Part shown: piece after piece, positions 19,714 to 59,259 of the stretch
Numbering within the stretch: position 1 is the first letter of the stretch
How the letters are laid out: every line of letters starts with the position of its first letter
IMG/VR virus record: IMGVR_UViG_3300026549_002453
Length of the DNA: 64,000 nucleotides
Origin: a virus
Taxonomy: Duplodnaviria; Heunggongvirae; Uroviricota; Caudoviricetes
Direction: 5' to 3' (one strand)
Translations under genes and position numbers: made by a program
The notes under the pieces: generated by a model
Told to the model about the DNA's origin: nothing
Seen by the model: only the letters and a program-made list of their open reading frames with translations
Databases searched by the model: none

Positions 19714-21189
19714 ATGAAAGAAGTAAAAGTATTAGCAAAAGATGGTCAAGAATTAATGCCTACAACAATTGAAAAAGCGAATAAACTAATATCAAAGGGA
19801 GAAGCAGAGATAGTAGAAACTTCCCCTATGACAATTAGAATACTAAAGAATACTAAAAGATATAAGCAAGAAACTCTCGGCGATAGTTATGATTTGCCTA
19901 TAACTTATGAGGAAAAGATTCCTATTGGTGTAACATACATAAATGAAGAAGTAGATTTATATTGGTCTCTTAAAAAATACTCTGAGGAACATTGGAATGT
20001 AGTATACTCGAATACTGTACTTGTTGCTGATGATGACCTTAATCCGAGCTTCTTCATTCATAACACTATTGCGAGTCTTAATTATACACCTAACATTAGT
20101 ATGATATATACAAGTAAACTAAATGGTAGTAAATATGCTTTTGCGAGAAATGTAAGAGGTTCTGCAGGTAATGATGTATCCATAGCGGACACCTCAGAAA
20201 GAGTGAAAAGGCTAATGATGGACCGCTTTAAGTTGCTTGAACAACATCAGGTTAATAGAATTGAACTCTTAAACGGAACGGTACTTACTAACTATAAAAT
20301 GTTTAATAGAGAATGGAATTGGGATGCATTATTTACTGTTGTGGATAATACAGACGCGCCTGAAAAGGCTTTCGGTAAAATGGGTACAGTGTGGCACAAC
20401 AGAAATTATTATACTATAACAATTAAAGAAATGTATGAAAAACTAAATAATGGCGAAATAAAGTACTTTACACTTGCAACACCAGTAAAAGGGGTACCAA
20501 GGCACATATTTAAGTTTGATATTGAAAAAACAGAGGGTGAATACGCGCCCCACAAAGTCATTCTTATCATAGATGACCTCGATGAAATAATGCTTTGCGA
20601 TAATTATAAAGCGGTACATACAGTTAAAGATTCATTAAGTGCAATCGCCAGATTAGGTAGAGCTGCAGGAGTATATCTAATACTTAAGTGTCAAAGGGCA
20701 AGTGGGTCTACTGTGTCTACAGATTTATTAAATAATTGCCTAATTAAAATAAGGACAGGTAATTCTTATGTAGGTCAAGATATTTTTATGTTTGATAAAG
20801 AATTACCGCCATTAAAAGATAATAGAGCATATGTACAATTTTATGGTAGAGAAGTATATGAAATACAGTCATACAACCCTCACAATATAGAACCTTGGGA
20901 TGACGTGTTTGATATAACAAAGACATCTATTGCAGAAATTCAAGCAAACACGGGATATGCAAAAGACTTCGACTTAACAGTAAAACCAAGTAAAGAACTG
21001 TTAGATAAAATAGAGGAAAGTAAGAAAGAGTATGCAAAGTTTGTAGAAGAAACTGAGTATGTATATCTTTCAAAAGGAGAAGTAAAAGATAGATTACTAA
21101 AGAAAATAAATAGTTTGGAAAAAGAAATAAGCTCAATAAAAGAAGATATTGATATGTTGTTTTCTGAATTAGATAATATTATAGAATAG
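19714..21189 (+). CDS. FtsK/SpoIIIE-like protein with degenerate Walker A and an N-terminal PLMP-like domain
   Basis: C-terminal half matches the FtsK motor signature (ILIIDDLDE...IARLGRAAGVYLILKCQRASGSTVSTDLLNNCLIKIRTGN). The Walker A position reads GSAGNDVS, so the Lys is lost. The first ~45 aa align with the PLMP domain of the IscB at 57156. Confidence 0.65.
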   Translation: MKEVKVLAKDGQELMPTTIEKANKLISKGEAEIVETSPMTIRILKNTKRYKQETLGDSYDLPITYEEKIPIGVTYINEEVDLYWSLKKYSEEHWNVVYSNTVLVADDDLNPSFFIHNTIASLNYTPNISMIYTSKLNGSKYAFARNVRGSAGNDVSIADTSERVKRLMMDRFKLLEQHQVNRIELLNGTVLTNYKMFNREWNWDALFTVVDNTDAPEKAFGKMGTVWHNRNYYTITIKEMYEKLNNGEIKYFTLATPVKGVPRHIFKFDIEKTEGEYAPHKVILIIDDLDEIMLCDNYKAVHTVKDSLSAIARLGRAAGVYLILKCQRASGSTVSTDLLNNCLIKIRTGNSYVGQDIFMFDKELPPLKDNRAYVQFYGREVYEIQSYNPHNIEPWDDVFDITKTSIAEIQANTGYAKDFDLTVKPSKELLDKIEESKKEYAKFVEETEYVYLSKGEVKDRLLKKINSLEKEISSIKEDIDMLFSELDNIIE

Positions 21190-48527: not shown

Positions 48528-48567
48528 GATTAGGACAAAGATAATTCCTTTGGCCTAATTCTTTATT
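48528..48567 (+). terminator. Rho-independent terminator candidate after the giant adhesin gene
   Basis: Interrupted hairpin ATTAGG-ACAAAG...CTTTGG-CCTAAT followed by a T-rich run. Confidence 0.5.
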
Positions 48568-50416: not shown

Positions 50417-51640
50417 TTGTTAGTACAAAGAACTGAACAACACATCATAGATAGACAGTCCAAGTGGTACAAAATGCTTAAGGAATTGTGTTATAAAGCT
50501 AAAAACACTTATAATCAAGGCAACTATATTATCAGGCAAGAATTTATTAAAAATGGTAAGTGGTTAAGGTATAATGACGTAGATAAACTGCTTAAGTATG
50601 ACCCTCAAAATGATAACTATTACTCTTGGTACGCTCATGCAAATCAACAAGTGCTTAGAAGACTTGATAAAAACTGGAAAAGCTTCTTCGCAAGTATAAA
50701 AGATTGGAAGAAAAATCCCTCTAAGTATAACGGCGTGCCAAAATTACCTAAGTATCTTAAAAAAGATGGTCTAACTGAATGGGGCATTACGGCGGGTGAA
50801 CTTAGGTTAGATTATACCGAAGGATTAATATATTTTCCTAAAGTGATGCAAGGTTTTAATATTCAACCACAATTTATCTATGATGAAAGATTTGTTCAAT
50901 TTAATCATTGTAGAATTGTTCCTAAGAATGATAGAATTATTGTCGAATTAATTTATACTATCTCAATCCCTGATTTTGTTAAAGAGCAAGGCTCTATAGG
51001 AAGTATTGACCTTGGTTTAGATAACTTTGTAACCTTTGTTGATAATCTTGGAAATCGTCCAATTATCATCAACGGTAAAGGTCTAAAGTCCTGTAATCAA
51101 TACTATAACAAGTTAATCGCTCAAATAAAATCAGAGCTTGATAAAAACGGTAATTCAGGATATAGTCACTTGCTATATTCAATTACAAACAAGCGAAATG
51201 ATAAAATTAAGCATTTCATGGATAAAGCATCTAAATATATTGTTGAAAATTGTCTTGATTTAGGAATAAAAACTATCGTGATTGGTAAAAATGATAATCA
51301 AAAACAAAATAGCAGAATGAAAAACTTTGTGCAAATTCCATATAACTTGTTTATTCAAAAACTTGCGTATAAGTGTCAAGAAGTAGGAATTGAACTAATT
51401 CTTACTGAAGAAAGTTATACAAGTGGTACAAGTTTTCTTGATGATGAACTACCAACTAAAGAAAATTATAATATTTCAAGAAGAGTAAAACGAGGGTTAT
51501 TCAAAAGCAATGACGGCAAGTTAATAAACGCAGATGTAAACGCTGCATACCAGACAATAAAAAAGGTATTCTCCGATGCTGTAAAGCCAGGAGATATAGG
51601 GTTAGTAATGAACCCAGTTCGGGTAAACTTTAGTTTCTGA
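50417..51640 (+). CDS. tnpB: TnpB-like (IS200/IS605 OrfB family) protein lacking the C-terminal zinc finger
   Basis: RuvC-I GSIDLGLDNF; YTSG segment; RuvC-III NADVNAAYQ. There are no CxxC pairs where the zinc finger should be. The residue expected for the RuvC-II Glu aligns to IVIGKND, so a Gly or Lys may sit there. GGAGG RBS, TTG start. Confidence 0.75.
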   Translation: MLVQRTEQHIIDRQSKWYKMLKELCYKAKNTYNQGNYIIRQEFIKNGKWLRYNDVDKLLKYDPQNDNYYSWYAHANQQVLRRLDKNWKSFFASIKDWKKNPSKYNGVPKLPKYLKKDGLTEWGITAGELRLDYTEGLIYFPKVMQGFNIQPQFIYDERFVQFNHCRIVPKNDRIIVELIYTISIPDFVKEQGSIGSIDLGLDNFVTFVDNLGNRPIIINGKGLKSCNQYYNKLIAQIKSELDKNGNSGYSHLLYSITNKRNDKIKHFMDKASKYIVENCLDLGIKTIVIGKNDNQKQNSRMKNFVQIPYNLFIQKLAYKCQEVGIELILTEESYTSGTSFLDDELPTKENYNISRRVKRGLFKSNDGKLINADVNAAYQTIKKVFSDAVKPGDIGLVMNPVRVNFSF

Positions 51641-51790
51641 GGTTGATAGAACAAAAAAGACTAAAAACTATAAACAAGGGTGTATTTTTGTATATGCTTT
51701 TATATAGTTGTTAACAGTTTTTATATTATATGTTGTAAAGTGTTGAAATTTTAATATTATAAAAAATTTATGGATGTATGTAAAAAATTA

Positions 51791-51819
51791 TTTACAGCAT
51801 CCATTTTTTTATATATAAT
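51791..51819 (+). promoter_or_regulatory. sigma-A promoter TTTACA-17-TATAAT with upstream A-tract, driving the MoxR-type ATPase gene
   Basis: Perfect consensus hexamers with a 17-nt spacer; near-duplicate of the promoter at 52981. Confidence 0.6.
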
Positions 51820-51871
51820 AATATTGTAATCAAATTGAAAATTATTTTAATCAAGTTAAGGAGAAATCAAA

Positions 51872-52831
51872 ATGAAAATTAACAAAAAGTACAACATTAA
51901 AAAAGAAAACAGAACTAATGACATTATTACTAATCTAATGACAGGGTACCGCCTCGAACGATACAGACCTGGGGACACTAGATACTCTGAACTTTACAGA
52001 ATCTTGAAGATTATGAAGAGACGTTCTATAACTGTTTCTTTGAAAAATAAACTTCTTGAAAGAGCTCTTGAAAGAATTTTTACTGACCCAGAAGACATTC
52101 AGAAGAGACTCATTCAGGTTGAACCTGAACCTGAGGTTGTTTATACTCAAACTTCTGTACCGGAATCTTCTTCCCCAGAGGTTGAGACTAATCCCGAGGA
52201 ACTAAAAAAGCGTACAGTTGAAAAACTTATGGACTTCTTTAGTGAATTTAACTTTTCACCCTCATTTAGATTTACCAATACTCTTGCTTTTGTAACAGAT
52301 GCTAATGAGTATGTAGCAAACTATTTTGCAATTCAAGACCATCAGTATGCTGGTGAGATTGCAGAAAAAATTAAGTCATTGGAGTTTACAGATATTATAT
52401 CCAAGATTAAGAACTTCAATAAACCTAGTAATGAAATTAATTCCCGTATGAAAATATATTATGGGGAACCCGGAACAGGTAAGACCACTCAGGCTATTAC
52501 AGAAGCCGACAGGTGCGTGGTGTGTAGTTCCGATATGCTTCCCACGGATCTCATGCAGAATTTTGCATTTAGTGAAGGTAAGGCAGAGTTCCAGAAGAGT
52601 GACCTTTGGAAGGCTATGGAGAATGGAGAAGTAATAGTTCTTGATGAAATTAATATGCTTCCATTTGAAAGTCTCCGCTTCCTTCAGGGTATTACAGATG
52701 GTAAAAACGAACTTGACTACAAGGGTTTCCATATTGAGATTAAGAAAGGTTTCCAGATTATTGGAACTATGAACCTCAATGTGGGGGGGAGCAGTAATGA
52801 GTGTTCCTTCACCTCTTGCAGACAGATGTAG
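51872..52831 (+). CDS. MoxR/AAA_5-type AAA+ ATPase, truncated at a poly-G tract
   Basis: Walker A YYGEPGTGKTT, Walker B VIVLDEINM, sensor-1 region IIGTMNLN. The ORF ends 13 codons after a G7 run; the -1 frame continues with PSPLADRCSEIVEF, which resembles the sensor-2 region. Confidence 0.75.
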   Translation: MKINKKYNIKKENRTNDIITNLMTGYRLERYRPGDTRYSELYRILKIMKRRSITVSLKNKLLERALERIFTDPEDIQKRLIQVEPEPEVVYTQTSVPESSSPEVETNPEELKKRTVEKLMDFFSEFNFSPSFRFTNTLAFVTDANEYVANYFAIQDHQYAGEIAEKIKSLEFTDIISKIKNFNKPSNEINSRMKIYYGEPGTGKTTQAITEADRCVVCSSDMLPTDLMQNFAFSEGKAEFQKSDLWKAMENGEVIVLDEINMLPFESLRFLQGITDGKNELDYKGFHIEIKKGFQIIGTMNLNVGGSSNECSFTSCRQM

Positions 52832-52918
52832 TGAAATCGTAGAATTTAAATTGACAGCTGATAATCTTATGGCCGCACTAGCGTAGCCTTGATTATAAAT
52901 GATTTCTCCTTTTAGAAG

Positions 52919-52948
52919 AGTGCCACTTGAAATACAGTGGCATTTTTC
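52919..52948 (+). terminator. Rho-independent terminator
   Basis: TGCCACT-tgaaatac-AGTGGCA followed by TTTTT. Confidence 0.65.
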
Positions 52949-52980
52949 ATATAAAAAATTGCAGTTCTATGAAAAAATTA

Positions 52981-53009
52981 TTTACAAAAGGTTCCCTCCG
53001 TGATATAAT
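52981..53009 (+). promoter_or_regulatory. sigma-A promoter TTTACA-17-TATAAT driving the vWA/metallopeptidase gene
   Basis: Perfect hexamers, 17-nt spacer and upstream A-tract; duplicate of the 51791 promoter, including the downstream leader TAAGGAGAAATCAAA. Confidence 0.6.
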
Positions 53010-53044
53010 ATATATGTAATTAATAAGAATAAAGGAGAAATCAA

Positions 53045-54619
53045 ATGTTAAACTACAATATTGTAAATGAAATTTTTAAAACTCTTCCTGTAGGTTATTA
53101 TCTTGGTAGAAAGATTGAGTGTGAGCTGTCTGAAACAGAATCAGGAAGTTACTACAATCCCGCCAAGGATGTCATAGTAGTAAGTTACCCTATGGTCAAA
53201 AAAGCTCTTAGTTCTGTTGAATATACTAGAGAAGGTCTTGAAGAACTTGTTAGAACTATTCTTTATCATGAAATTTCTCATGTTATTCTTACTCCTAAAA
53301 ATTGGAGAATGAGTAGAATCCATAATATAGTAGAAGACGAGAGAATTGAAACCATCTTTAGAACCTACTATATGAACACAAACTTTAGAAAAACAGTTAA
53401 ATTAATAAATAACTTTGAAGGTGTGTCCGTTATTAGCTCAACCCCCATTAGTATGGATAGTGCGTTTTATCATCTCGTAAGATATAGAATTGGAGAAGAA
53501 AAGTGGTTGGAAAGACTTTCTTCCCTTATTTACAAGTATAGAACTCTTAATGCAAATGATAACTATCGTGATTACCAATGGGATATTGATGATTTTTACA
53601 GAGATTTCTGTAGAGAGTGGAGAACCAAAGAAACTGATGAAGCTAGGTCTGATGAAGGGGACAAAGAATCTGGTTCTTCCACTGAACCCTCTCCTGACGT
53701 AACGGAGATGGATGAAAGCTCAGAAACGGCAGAAGAATCTGAAGAACCCTCTGAATACATTTCTAAAACATCCTCCGAGACAGCAGAAGAACTTGATGAC
53801 GCTGATGATGTAGAACAGGATAATAGTGATAACCCTGGTTGTGGTGATGAGAGCGACTTTGAAGATACAATAGAGGATGCTACTAATATCATTAAAAAAG
53901 CAATTAAATCCACCATTGACAAATATAATGATGAAACTCTTACAGCTAGACTCATTCAAATAGTTGACAGAAAACTTAAGCAAAATAAAAAGACAGGTTC
54001 CGCAATAAATAGTTACAGTGGTCAACTTAATAAAAGAGCAATAGCCACTAGAGATGATTACCGTTGGTGGACAACACAGAATAGAGAAGGCAATATCAGA
54101 AGATACTCCAATGTTCACTTTAATCTTTTTATTGACAACAGTGGAAGCTTCTCTCATAATGATACTCTTATGAATACTTTTATTAAGAGTCTTGATAAGA
54201 TTTCTAAAATGAACAAGCAGTTTACCTTTGATGTCATTACTATCAATCACGAAGTAGTAGAATGGGAAGACCACAATAGAGAGTTTGATTCTTGTGGAGG
54301 TAACGAACTTACTGATGATATTGCCAAAGTAATTAAGAGACATACAAAGGTCAATTCAAATAATTACAATATAGTACTCTTTGATGGAGACGCTCATAGT
54401 GATGATTTTAGAAACTACACACCCGAGCAACACATGGCTAAGGGTACAGCTATGGACCCATTCAGGCATTTTGATGGGCCTAACACAATCATTATTTCAG
54501 ACCCCTATAACAAAAAGTATATTACGGCATCAGTAAAAAAGGCAAGAACGATATACACCTATGACTATTGTAATACTTTTGCTGATAATATCTGTAACCT
54601 TCTTGAAAAGGTAATATAA
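53045..54619 (+). CDS. HExxH metallopeptidase-like + acidic linker + von Willebrand factor A (MIDAS) domain protein (partner of the MoxR ATPase)
   Basis: HEISH motif at residue ~75; D/E/S-rich linker; vWA MIDAS motif DNSGSFS. Confidence 0.7.
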   Translation: MLNYNIVNEIFKTLPVGYYLGRKIECELSETESGSYYNPAKDVIVVSYPMVKKALSSVEYTREGLEELVRTILYHEISHVILTPKNWRMSRIHNIVEDERIETIFRTYYMNTNFRKTVKLINNFEGVSVISSTPISMDSAFYHLVRYRIGEEKWLERLSSLIYKYRTLNANDNYRDYQWDIDDFYRDFCREWRTKETDEARSDEGDKESGSSTEPSPDVTEMDESSETAEESEEPSEYISKTSSETAEELDDADDVEQDNSDNPGCGDESDFEDTIEDATNIIKKAIKSTIDKYNDETLTARLIQIVDRKLKQNKKTGSAINSYSGQLNKRAIATRDDYRWWTTQNREGNIRRYSNVHFNLFIDNSGSFSHNDTLMNTFIKSLDKISKMNKQFTFDVITINHEVVEWEDHNREFDSCGGNELTDDIAKVIKRHTKVNSNNYNIVLFDGDAHSDDFRNYTPEQHMAKGTAMDPFRHFDGPNTIIISDPYNKKYITASVKKARTIYTYDYCNTFADNICNLLEKVI

Positions 54620-56539: not shown

Positions 56540-56809
56540 ATGAAAACATTAAAAGAAGATTGGCAAGCTCAACAAGATTGTGACCCTAAGGCTCACGGAG
56601 TAAATCCATTAGAAATTAAAGGAGTAACTATAACTCTCACCCATTCGGATAGCGGCGGATTTATGATTGGGTTTAATGTACCCGGCAGAGGTACTTGGTC
56701 AGAGCCTGTGTCTGATTATAAAGATTTTTATGATGCTCTTGGACACATATTTGTAGAAGAGGGAGGTATAATGGATAACTTATTGTGTAAAGGAACTCTA
56801 TTAGAGTGA
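56540..56809 (+). CDS. hypothetical small protein
   Basis: AAGGAG RBS. Confidence 0.4.
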   Translation: MKTLKEDWQAQQDCDPKAHGVNPLEIKGVTITLTHSDSGGFMIGFNVPGRGTWSEPVSDYKDFYDALGHIFVEEGGIMDNLLCKGTLLE

Positions 56810-57155
56810 ACGAGTGCACACCCTGAAAGTGCCACTTTCACAAGCATAGCTTGAAGTGTATGCACCTTCGGGTACAAGACGTTCACAAGACTTAGGTTGG
56901 AGAAATCCTACCTACGTTAAATAGGTTATGACACCCATGGATGTTGGGCAAGACCATTGCTCTGTCGATTAGTTTTAAGTTGAATGCTAGTGTACAGATA
57001 GTTCTGTGAACTAATTATGTAAGCCTATTTAACATTGTCGATGCCAAGTCCGACACTTATTATGGTAATATTAGTAAGTTAGGCACTACAGTCATTAGAA
57101 GTACTGGTTTATAGCGTAAAACTTCTAAAATATCTACAGAAAGGAGCTAAAGCGT
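56810..57155 (+). ncRNA. candidate IscB omega RNA / structured 5' leader
   Basis: 346-nt non-coding stretch, more GC-rich than the surroundings, directly upstream of iscB. Contains several local hairpins, e.g. GAAAGTG-C-CACTTTC and ACC-TTCG-GGT (a UUCG tetraloop). IscB omega RNAs lie 5' of iscB. Confidence 0.5.
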
Positions 57156-58439
57156 ATGTTTGTATATGTTTTAGATAGTAATGGACAACCACTTATGCCA
57201 ACATCTCGTTTTGGCAAGGTTCGTAGATTACTTAATTTAAAACAAGCTAAAGTAGTACGGAGTTGTCCATTCACTATACAGTTGTTGTATGAACCTAAAA
57301 CAACTGTAGTACAAGAAATTGTCTTAGGAGTAGATACAGGTTCAAAACGTATTGGCACAGCTTGTGTTGCTAATGACAAAGTTCTATATCAATCACAGAT
57401 TGAATTGAGAACTGATATCAAATCTAAAATGGACAGTCGTAGACAAGCTCGTAGGTTTAGACGAAATCGTAAAACTAGATACAGAAAAGCAAGATTCCTA
57501 AACAGAGCTAATTCTACAAAGAAAGACAGATTACCACCAAGTGTAAGACATAAGGTACAAGCTCACATTGATGAGGTAGAATTTTGTAAGAAAATACTAC
57601 CAATTTCAAAAATTGTACTTGAGGTAAGTCAATTTGATACCCACTTAATGAAAAATCCTGCATTAATAAGCGAAAAATTAAAACATTGGGCTTATCAAAA
57701 GGGTTTCAATTATGAATTTAGTTCAAGAAGAGAAGCAGTGTTACACAGAGATAACTATACTTGTCAAATATGTGGTAAAAAACATACAAAATTAGAAGTA
57801 CATCATATCATTTATAGAAGTCAAGGTGGTACGGATGATGAGGATAATCTCATAACTCTATGTAAAGATTGTCATGATGCACTACACGATGGACAAATAA
57901 TATTGACTAAAAAACCTCGTAGGATGAATCTTAAACATGCAACTCACATGAGCATTATTAGAAGTCAATTACTTAAAGTCTATCCTGAAGCTACAGAAAC
58001 ATTTGGATTTGTAACTAAAGAGAATAGAAATCATCTTGATTTGCCAAAGGACCACTATATAGATGCTTGTGTAATAGCATCAGGTGGAGAAGGGTTTAAA
58101 CTTAATAATGAGATATTTTACAAAAGAAGAGTAGCTTATGCAGATAGAAAACTATGTAGAGGTATTCGAGGAGAAGAAAGAATACCAACGGGTAAAATAC
58201 ATGGTTTTAAGAGATATGACAAAGTTAGATATTTTAACAAAGAGTATTTTATCAAGGGCAGAATGAGTAATGGATATGTAGTATTGATGGACATATTTAA
58301 TAATAAGGTAGATTTTAGTTACATGCCAAAAGGCATGAAAACGCCTAAATTGGCAAATTGTAAAAGATTAAATTCAAGAAAAAGTGTAATAGTGGATAGG
58401 CAAGAAAGGTATGTAATTTTCTTGCCTAAGATTGTATAA
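57156..58439 (+). CDS. iscB: IscB, OMEGA-system RNA-guided nuclease (PLMP, split RuvC, HNH)
   Basis: PLMP domain with the literal PLMP motif; RuvC-I VLGVDTGSKRIG; Arg-rich bridge helix RRQARRFRRNRKTRYRKARF; HNH CQICGKK...HHIIYRSQGG...DNLITLCKDCHDALH; RuvC-III HYIDACVIASGG. Confidence 0.85.
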   Translation: MFVYVLDSNGQPLMPTSRFGKVRRLLNLKQAKVVRSCPFTIQLLYEPKTTVVQEIVLGVDTGSKRIGTACVANDKVLYQSQIELRTDIKSKMDSRRQARRFRRNRKTRYRKARFLNRANSTKKDRLPPSVRHKVQAHIDEVEFCKKILPISKIVLEVSQFDTHLMKNPALISEKLKHWAYQKGFNYEFSSRREAVLHRDNYTCQICGKKHTKLEVHHIIYRSQGGTDDEDNLITLCKDCHDALHDGQIILTKKPRRMNLKHATHMSIIRSQLLKVYPEATETFGFVTKENRNHLDLPKDHYIDACVIASGGEGFKLNNEIFYKRRVAYADRKLCRGIRGEERIPTGKIHGFKRYDKVRYFNKEYFIKGRMSNGYVVLMDIFNNKVDFSYMPKGMKTPKLANCKRLNSRKSVIVDRQERYVIFLPKIV

Positions 58440-59218: not shown

Positions 59219-59259
59219 TGTAAATAATTATTTACAGTTTAGAGAATATAATATATAAT
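59219..59259 (+). promoter_or_regulatory. perfect 18-bp palindrome TGTAAATAATTATTTACA overlapping a TTTACA-17-TATAAT promoter
   Basis: Palindrome 59219-59236; -35 TTTACA 59231-59236; -10 TATAAT 59254-59259; upstream of the 59304/recombinase module. Confidence 0.55.

Follow-up and report, generated by a model that had tools for sequence, protein, structure and literature searches.

A 64,000-nucleotide (nt) stretch of DNA catalogued under Caudoviricetes (IMG/VR virus record IMGVR_UViG_3300026549_002453), called the window below, carries side by side a gene for a MoxR/AAA_5-type ATPase and a gene for a protein in which a predicted N-terminal zincin-like metallopeptidase domain is joined to a C-terminal vWA domain. 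This locus is a divergent, unmodelled copy of the known viral pair of MoxR and metallopeptidase-vWA proteins (cobST-like). The pair itself is fairly ordinary, because it is already known from many phages, where it is often labelled CobS/CobT. Two features are new here: a one-base frameshift breaks the ATPase gene, and the ATPase has a separate mRNA, in the tail of which lies a conserved stretch complementary to a ribosome binding site (RBS). The domain identities, the conserved residues of the catalytic site and of the MIDAS (an adhesion site that depends on a metal ion), the conserved pairing with the ATPase, and the presence both in phages and in giant plasmid-like elements were obtained directly. 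We lean slightly towards taking the two genes as two parts of a phage-type MoxR-vWA machine, with the regulation and the frameshift described below.

The gene for the zincin-vWA protein is intact; it starts with an ATG at 53045, ends at 54619 on the + strand and encodes 524 amino acids (aa). Alignment, a structure model and a motif delimit an N-terminal zincin-like domain (residues 1-204; 53045..53656, + strand), which is followed by a disordered acidic linker rich in D, E and S (residues 205-269; 53657..53851, + strand; alignment and disorder) and by a conserved helical segment (270-350) with the vWA domain (about 350-524; together 53852..54619, + strand; alignment and fold search). The HEISH sequence (H75-E76-x-x-H79, nt 53267-81) lies within helix 62-82 and is invariant in 30 homologues of 40-57% identity, as is the block N94..E97-D98-E99-R100-I101-E102, save for E99 (at least 90%). 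E97, E99 and E102 sit in the next helix, 18-23 residues past HExxH, and a metal ligand might be chosen from among them. The MIDAS sequence DNSGS (D364-x-S366-x-S368, nt 54134-48) is also invariant in these homologues, and so is D447 within an invariant F446-D447-G448; G418-G419 is conserved, and the MIDAS position in GG(N/T/S)420 is N in the window protein. All of the homologues have the acidic linker, with a sequence that is not conserved. An acidic D/E-rich linker also precedes the MIDAS domain in midasin, BchD and CobT.

In the models, the N-terminal domain adopts a zincin fold, the nearest folds including SprT/Spartan, Wss1 and ArdC, and the C-terminal domain adopts a vWA (Rossmann-like) fold that matches NorD and BchD. 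A Foldseek search against BFVD gave full-length matches to phage proteins named 'CobT-like/VWFA/metallopeptidase' and to ORF892 of Acidianus two-tailed virus (ATV), with E from 2.5e-34 to 1e-7, alignments of 560-760 columns and 32% identity to the best entry. At the level of sequence, Pfam (VWA, DUF2201, CobT), PHROGs and NCBIfam gave no match for the window protein, with no vWA or peptidase family at E<=1, and PADLOC gave none either. None of the 30 homologues matched a Pfam VWA-type family at E<=1, nor did the window protein, and searches of the PDB with a profile of the full-length protein or of the N-domain returned only acidic-linker or spurious Dcp2 matches. DUF4344 ('putative metallopeptidase') was touched by 6 of the 30 homologues (best E 5e-5), DUF2201_N (PF13203) by one (E 0.039) and DUF2201 (PF09967) by none, and the window protein touched neither DUF2201_N nor DUF2201.

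The original prediction, made from the sequence alone, had described this gene product as an HExxH module, an acidic linker and a vWA domain, and had named the lack of vWA or metallopeptidase similarity in a profile search as the result that would tell against it. That search indeed gave nothing at E<=1. Since no sequence profile recognises the protein, the zincin and vWA calls rest on AlphaFold models and motifs, and the structure models alone rescue the domains. With this qualification the proposed HExxH peptidase-linker-vWA architecture is right, because the residues are invariant in the 30 homologues and 6 of these touch DUF4344. Peptidase activity and metal binding of the N-terminal domain are predicted. 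The further assignment to a DUF2201-type module is not supported: the Pfam DUF2201_N and DUF2201 proteins (putative metallopeptidase and VWA-like, usually next to MoxR) have the same domain order and the same neighbour, but their profiles do not match the window protein.

The ATPase gene (51872..52886, + strand; open reading frame (ORF), profile and alignment) was correctly recognised as AAA_5/MoxR-like. Pfam AAA_5 matches residues 197-319 of the repaired protein (E 2.9e-14, 53.7 bits, gathering cutoff 22), and the best solved relatives in a profile search of the PDB are the midasin AAA domain (1e-17) and CbbQ/NorQ (0.0018). Walker A (G198-T206, GxxGxGKT, nt 52463-86), Walker B (D258-E259, nt 52643-48), the sensor 1 sequence TMN (T299-M-N301) and PxPLxDR are all invariant in 19 relatives. 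A family-specific N-terminal region of about 190 residues (FFSEFxFxPSxRFVNTL...) stands ahead of the AAA core.

The ORF as originally read, which runs in frame 0 from the ATG at 51872 to 52831 (319 aa), misses a frameshift. The site is a run of seven G (G7; 52783..52789, + strand), located by a sequence scan and by comparison with intact relatives; the 64 kb of the window have no other run of seven G or seven C. The frame-0 product stops 13 codons past G7, at 52831, with the final residues ...GGSSNECSFTSCRQM, and AVMSVPSPLADR would come from the +1 frame. Removal of one G gives a repaired ATPase of 337 aa in the homologous frame, which ends at 52886 with ...NLNVGGAVMSVPSPLADRCSEIVEFKLTADNLMAALA. 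This tail aligns with the C-terminus of each homologue. Among the 120 best-scoring homologues, many cover 100% of the repaired query, and all 18 relatives aligned in the A3 alignment run in frame to its C-terminus. Five invariant residues lie downstream of the shift (P312, P314, L315, D317 and R318), forming the arginine-finger box PxPLxDR, which is found in the +1 frame only and is absent from the ORF as written. At the G7 site, intact relatives encode NLN(V/I)GG(A/V) with interrupted G runs, and the ancestral codons were probably GTG GGG GGA. The frameshift is read as a recent +1G slip, and since this slip truncates the protein before the arginine finger, the window copy is probably ATPase-dead unless the frame is restored. 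The same frameshift is present in assemblies from three sources: besides the window, these are the Logan assembly L001, which is 100% identical over 7,940 bp with G7 included, and the JGI fragment P0121, in which the ATPase tail is likewise out of frame. Programmed +1 frameshifting or transcriptional slippage at G7 was considered and judged unlikely, as no known slippery or stall motif was seen and the site is in no homologue. Phase variation at G7 is unsupported, since the protein collection lacks an intact form with G6.

The lesion might also be taken as a sign that the locus is decaying, with the ATPase as a pseudogene and the conserved non-coding features as functionless leftovers. Such decay would fit the loss of the five invariant residues, the absence of the intact 337-aa form from a 15-billion-protein collection in which the truncated form is present, and the insertions of IS200/605 type (TnpB and IscB) that flank the locus. 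Yet the ATPase frame is otherwise intact, with 68% identity to the closest relative in the A3 alignment (67% by BLASTP) and no second lesion. The vWA gene is intact too, as are the two promoters, the terminator and the 3' complementary stretch described below, so that we regard decay as distinctly improbable. Because the rest of the locus is intact, the lesion would have arisen very recently, could be reversed or might be a homopolymer error of the assembly.

The zincin-vWA protein belongs to a large family. The branch of the window protein holds more than 500 clusters at 90% identity, none of them with a Pfam domain, on contigs of up to 512 kb. An N-domain profile found 647 clusters (50% identity) at E<=1e-3 and 383 at E<=1e-30; the match is N-terminal in all listed hits, nearly all of which are about 450-650 aa long, the remainder being shorter fragments and a few longer proteins. 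More distant members, at 22-26% identity, make up a branch of more than 1000 clusters on contigs of about 72 kb with genes for portal and Dit proteins. The family connects 72-kb gut phages to giant (145-512 kb) plasmid-like elements. Searches of phage and plasmid collections with the locus and the vWA protein (blastn and tblastn) gave no match, and a scan of genome contigs gave 4 distant loci only.

The AAA_5 ATPase gene and the vWA gene are adjacent in nine loci (the window, L002, L006, L008, L013-L016 and L019). At 45-57% identity the ATPase gene lies directly upstream in L002 and L013-L016, and at 22-26% identity it does so in L006 and L019; in L008, a contig of Acutalibacteraceae, it lies directly downstream of the vWA gene. 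The closest loci, L002 and L013-L016, keep the order of ATPase gene, a gap of 120-180 nt and vWA gene. On other contigs the two genes are present but apart, by 4.3 kb (L011/L020) or about 70 kb (L009/L021). On the giant elements (L009, L010, L011, L016 and L002; contigs of 145-512 kb), the vWA gene stands among genes for Thg1, T4-type RNA ligase, Tpt1, NADAR, HD and HD-OB proteins, clamp loader and PolA. These neighbourhoods also encode NAD-dependent ligase, a HECT-domain protein, SecA and adhesins longer than 4000 aa. Judged by its genes, this is a phage-like replication and RNA-repair set on plasmid-looking elements.

With the ATPase as the query, tblastn against phages gave AAA-core matches only, in actinophages and a Ralstonia jumbo phage. 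In the Gordonia phage GodonK (L018), the 755-aa hypothetical protein gp105, encoded next to the AAA-ATPase gp107, reads HETGH...FEELRCED where the window protein reads HEISH...VEDERIE, and its match to the A1 profile is not significant (E 0.17). This is a hint that the actinophage ATPases called 'porphyrin biosynthesis' might share a zincin partner. None of the large proteins encoded beside the actinophage and jumbo-phage ATPase matches was significant against the A1 profile, and the neighbour in Pumpernickel is a HATPase_c_3 protein.

As far as can be told from its signals, each of the two genes is its own transcription unit with the strong promoter that is standard for the element, and the ATPase mRNA ends at a conserved terminator. 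The ATPase promoter (51782..51819, + strand) consists of an A-tract, a -35 TTTACA (51791-96), a 17-nt spacer and a -10 TATAAT (51814-19), and the promoter of the zincin-vWA gene (52972..53009, + strand) of the 15-mer AAAAAATTATTTACA and the extended -10 TGATATAAT; in both, GTAAT follows six bases past the -10. The two TTTACA-17-TATAAT sites (51791-51819 and 52981-53009) each match the consensus at 11 of 12 positions, and the 15-mer is identical in both promoters (at 51782 and 52972). These are the twin consensus promoters of the original prediction. They are not exclusive to the pair: the same class recurs in the window at 48566 and 59231, and the promoter is the standard of the element and not a private duplication of the pair.

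The promoter class (A-tract, TTTACA-like -35, 17 nt, TGnTATAAT, N6, (G/A)TAA) is conserved in related elements, as its own promoter precedes the ATPase gene in 8 of 8 loci examined and the vWA gene in 9 of 9. Both promoters of one element have a common -35 variant, namely TTATTTACA in the window, TTGTTTACAGATTA in L013, CATTGACAGAT in L015 and GTATACA in L002 and L016. The latter two loci have one more promoter of this class near the pair, a third, and its -35 is different. The leaders with their Shine-Dalgarno (SD) sequences, TAAGGAGAAATCAAA for the ATPase gene (51857..51871, + strand) and AAAGGAGAAATCAAA for the vWA gene (53031..53045, + strand), share 14 identical nt, AAGGAGAAATCAAA, at 51858 and 53032, which confirms that both genes have the same leader. 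Between the two genes lies an intrinsic terminator hairpin with a U-run (52915..52948, + strand; folding and covariation) of -18.5 kcal/mol and z -3.2, which was not called by a pattern scanner. A hairpin and U-run are always found 3' of the ATPase gene, with compensatory changes in 6 of 12 pairs; the predicted separate transcription with a terminator after the ATPase gene is thus upheld, and the layout is kept in relatives. Rfam gave no known RNA in the intergenic regions.

The -35 of the ATPase promoter lies within a palindrome, TGTAAA-N6-TTTACA (51778-51796), which occurs again at 59219-59236. The palindrome makes a mirror promoter-like site on the minus strand (51784-51756), and a 7-bp inverted repeat, ATGGATG...CATCCAT (51770-51803), brackets it. 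These repeats could be an operator or divergent promoters.

Right after the ATPase stop codon, the 3' untranslated region (UTR) contains an anti-Shine-Dalgarno (anti-SD) stretch, TGATTTCTCCTTT (52900..52912, + strand; complementarity and conservation), which is complementary to the ATPase leader over 12 nt and to the vWA leader over 13 nt. In six loci of the adjacent type (the window, L002 and L013-L016), the stretch at this position is complementary to the ATPase's own leader and SD. It extends over 12-13 nt in the window (TGATTTCTCCTT(T)), 12 nt in L013, 10-11 nt in L015 and 9 nt in L014, and consists of TAACTCC(T) and a second block in L002 and L016 (-23.5 and -20.4 kcal/mol). The flanks of the anti-SD covary with the leader. 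The energy of the duplex between the 3' UTR and the leader was equalled or beaten by 11, 0, 3, 1, 4 and 1 of 500 dinucleotide shuffles in the six loci, and pairing with the vWA leader is significant only in loci whose two leaders resemble each other. The window's + strand has CTCCTT at only 10 places and TTCTCCTT nowhere but at 52904. Read in the minus direction, 52912-52900 resembles an SD; an antisense gene behind it was rejected, because no ATG, GTG or TTG start follows and the equivalent in L002 runs straight into a stop codon.

In this clade the anti-SD can pair with the ATPase's own RBS, and such pairing would probably throttle translation of the ATPase mRNA or control its stability. Staphylococcus aureus icaR (PMC3868564) and Bacillus subtilis hbs (PMC5737220) similarly have a C/U-rich anti-SD in the 3' UTR complementary to their own SD on a monocistronic mRNA in a low-GC Gram-positive setting. 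In contrast to these, the ATPase 3' UTR of the window is only about 60 nt long, and its predicted anti-SD stands directly before the terminator and has an equally good partner in the leader of the gene that follows. An alternative, drawn from the mRNA-mRNA coupling of a factor with its chaperone in Listeria (PMC8722363), is that the ATPase and co-factor mRNAs of the window's clade might be coupled in this way. The ATPase unit is conserved and monocistronic; with its covarying terminator and the anti-SD in its 3' UTR, it would be a compact, testable example of how 5' and 3' UTRs may exert control in bacteria other than the models. The conserved layout of transcription adds interest but is unproven, and none of the findings on the pair is striking enough to alter the field by itself.

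The viral cobST pair, or MoxR-peptidase-vWA pair, occurs widely and belongs to the core genes of cyanophages, and its interpretations in two papers, as a chelatase and as a chaperone-protease, conflict. In group 2.2 jumbo phages, a MoxR AAA+ ATPase and a vWA protein with an N-terminal metallopeptidase have been predicted to form a chaperone-protease (Iyer et al., 2021; PMC7824862). The two-gene arrangement is the same as here, an AAA_5/MoxR gene next to that of a vWA co-chaperone with an N-terminal HExxH, in large viral or mobile genomes, and in both cases the function is predicted. In contrast to the jumbo-phage pair, the window-type context is replication- or plasmid-like instead of one of virion genes, each window gene has its own promoter with a terminator in between, and tblastn against 50,697 phage records detected no similarity for the vWA protein and only the AAA core for the ATPase. 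MoxR-vWA couples such as midasin, NorQ-NorD, CbbQ-CbbO and BchI-BchD (PMC7159879) provide the analogy for a mechanism. The AAA_5/midasin-like ATPase would form a ring and engage the co-factor, the MIDAS site of which would grip an acidic residue of a putative client; ATP hydrolysis would then remodel the client, and the HExxH zincin domain might cut either this client or the co-factor. The ring, the binding of a client at the MIDAS, the proteolysis and the client itself are inferred. The cellular couples, including RavA-ViaA, share the AAA_5/helix-2-insert ATPase, the vWA fold and the D/E-rich linker, but their co-factors have no peptidase domain, and the window ATPase differs from theirs in its 190-residue N-terminal region and its lack of a recognisable lid.

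The two-gene viral cobST cluster has alternatively been read as a cobaltochelatase (Liu et al., 2021; PMC8651126), in which CobS and CobT would hijack the CobN of the host to raise cobalamin synthesis. BFVD entries of this kind (A0A8S5SI35 and A0A8S5NNQ0) match over the full length of the structure (E 2.5e-34, 32% identity), the pairing with AAA_5 is common to both, the acidic linker aligns with CobT (9uka), and the ATPase matches phrog_249 'porphyrin biosynthesis' in PHROGs (1.2e-12). Relatives are called 'cobalamin biosynthesis protein' or 'CobT' in UniProt, one member of the distant branch being named 'Cobalamin biosynthesis protein, Myoviridae sp.' These names are homology-transfer labels, however. 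No CobT or CobT_C profile matches, TIGR01651 reaching only E 0.025, on the linker of a distant relative, and the scanned ORFs of the window include neither CobN nor any other cob gene. The N-domain zincin with its invariant HExxH would not be needed by a chelatase and argues for proteolysis over chelation. The chaperone-protease is favoured because of the invariant zincin site and the lack of a CobT profile match and of CobN among the ORFs scanned, and we consider a chelatase quite improbable here. A divergent family of 647 clusters with an invariant zincin site and no Pfam, PHROG or NCBIfam model weighs toward a protease and is worth modelling.

Within the chaperone-protease interpretation, the clients might be structural proteins processed during particle assembly. 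Such a role has been proposed for the same architecture in jumbo phages (PMC7824862) and was shown for tail development of ATV, whose ORF892 is among the Foldseek matches, and about 2.4 kb separate the pair from the portal gene in L019, a 72-kb phage. The L019 pair, however, is on the strand opposite to the structural genes, among small early-type genes, and its neighbours on the giant elements are clamp loader, PolA, RecA, ligase, Thg1 and RNA ligase genes. The window itself looks plasmid-like from its gene content: it encodes a coupling ATPase of the FtsK/SpoIIIE type, an M23+NlpC/P60 cell-wall hydrolase, a 2362-aa DUF7601 adhesin, an Rce1-like protein, RecA and dCMP deaminase. None of the ORFs scanned with Pfam matched a family of virion proteins. 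The pair has its sigma-70-type promoter in common with non-structural genes. The genes around the pair and the class of its promoters suggest a role that is early or tied to replication, not a structural one, and particle assembly appears doubtful.

Because the nearest folds of the N-domain include SprT/Spartan, Wss1 and ArdC and the usual neighbours are clamp loader, PolA, RecA, ligase and RNA-repair enzymes, the pair could instead form an ATP-driven protease that is complete in itself and has as its targets nucleoprotein or replication complexes, either those of the element or those of its host. Such a protease would be the counterpart in bacterial viruses of Cdc48-Wss1/Spartan or midasin. 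Its dosage would then be set by the anti-SD, which in a manner not described before would close the ATPase mRNA on its own RBS or couple it to the co-factor mRNA, and the G-tract could act as an on/off switch. This more specific proposal is, as a whole, unlikely.

MoxR-vWA couples are also the core of known conflict systems (PMC7159879), in some of which a metallopeptidase takes the effector position, and TnpB and IscB insertions flank the locus. The pair was first put forward as a candidate defence or conflict module. As anti-phage cargo of a mobile element, the MoxR-vWA couple would be a threshold switch for a protease effector. The suggestion is not supported. PADLOC gave no significant match, with only IetA for the ATPase (E 0.0035, 14.8 bits), and no VMAP, iSTAND, FtsH or beta-propeller protein is adjacent as a third component. 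The neighbours are unrelated and variable between loci, and the zincin is N-terminal and invariant, not a variable C-terminal effector. The pair is kept across hundreds of 50%-identity clusters in phages and giant elements, next to genes for replication, RNA repair and nucleotide metabolism, as a core gene would be. A defence role has, in our judgement, a low probability.

Several points weigh against a phage-type MoxR-vWA machine as well. The client and the physical contact between ATPase and co-factor are putative, and no sequence profile matches the window vWA protein, as described above. The ATPase family ends about 19 residues after R318, which appears too short for a canonical AAA+ lid. 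The co-factor may act independently of the ATPase, because the ATPase is broken while the vWA protein is intact and the genes are about 70 kb apart in some elements. L020 has only a weak anti-SD and L021 has none, so the feature is specific to the window's clade.

The window has a GC content of 33%, and all of its ORFs longer than 260 aa, including all family-matched ones, are on the + strand, with a steadily rising GC skew. 'Inocle' elements of oral Streptococcus are giant extrachromosomal elements of 395 kb and 32% GC (PMC12340149); the window resembles them in GC content, one-strand bias, LPXTG-type adhesins and load of insertion sequences, which is a lead only. Upstream of the pair, a TnpB gene (OrfB_IS605 and Cas12f1-like TNB; 50417-51640) lies between the gene for the Rce1-like protein and the ATPase promoter; L015 has two minus-strand genes at this position instead. 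Downstream, a HEARO RNA (56806-57053; Rfam RF02033, 83.9 bits) stands directly upstream of an IscB-type protein (57156-58439) with RRXRR and HNH domains and an N-terminal PLMP motif, and the two make up a complete IscB/omega-RNA unit. Elsewhere in the window, the ORF at 19714-21189 has an RRXRR N-terminus fused to an FtsK/SpoIIIE domain.

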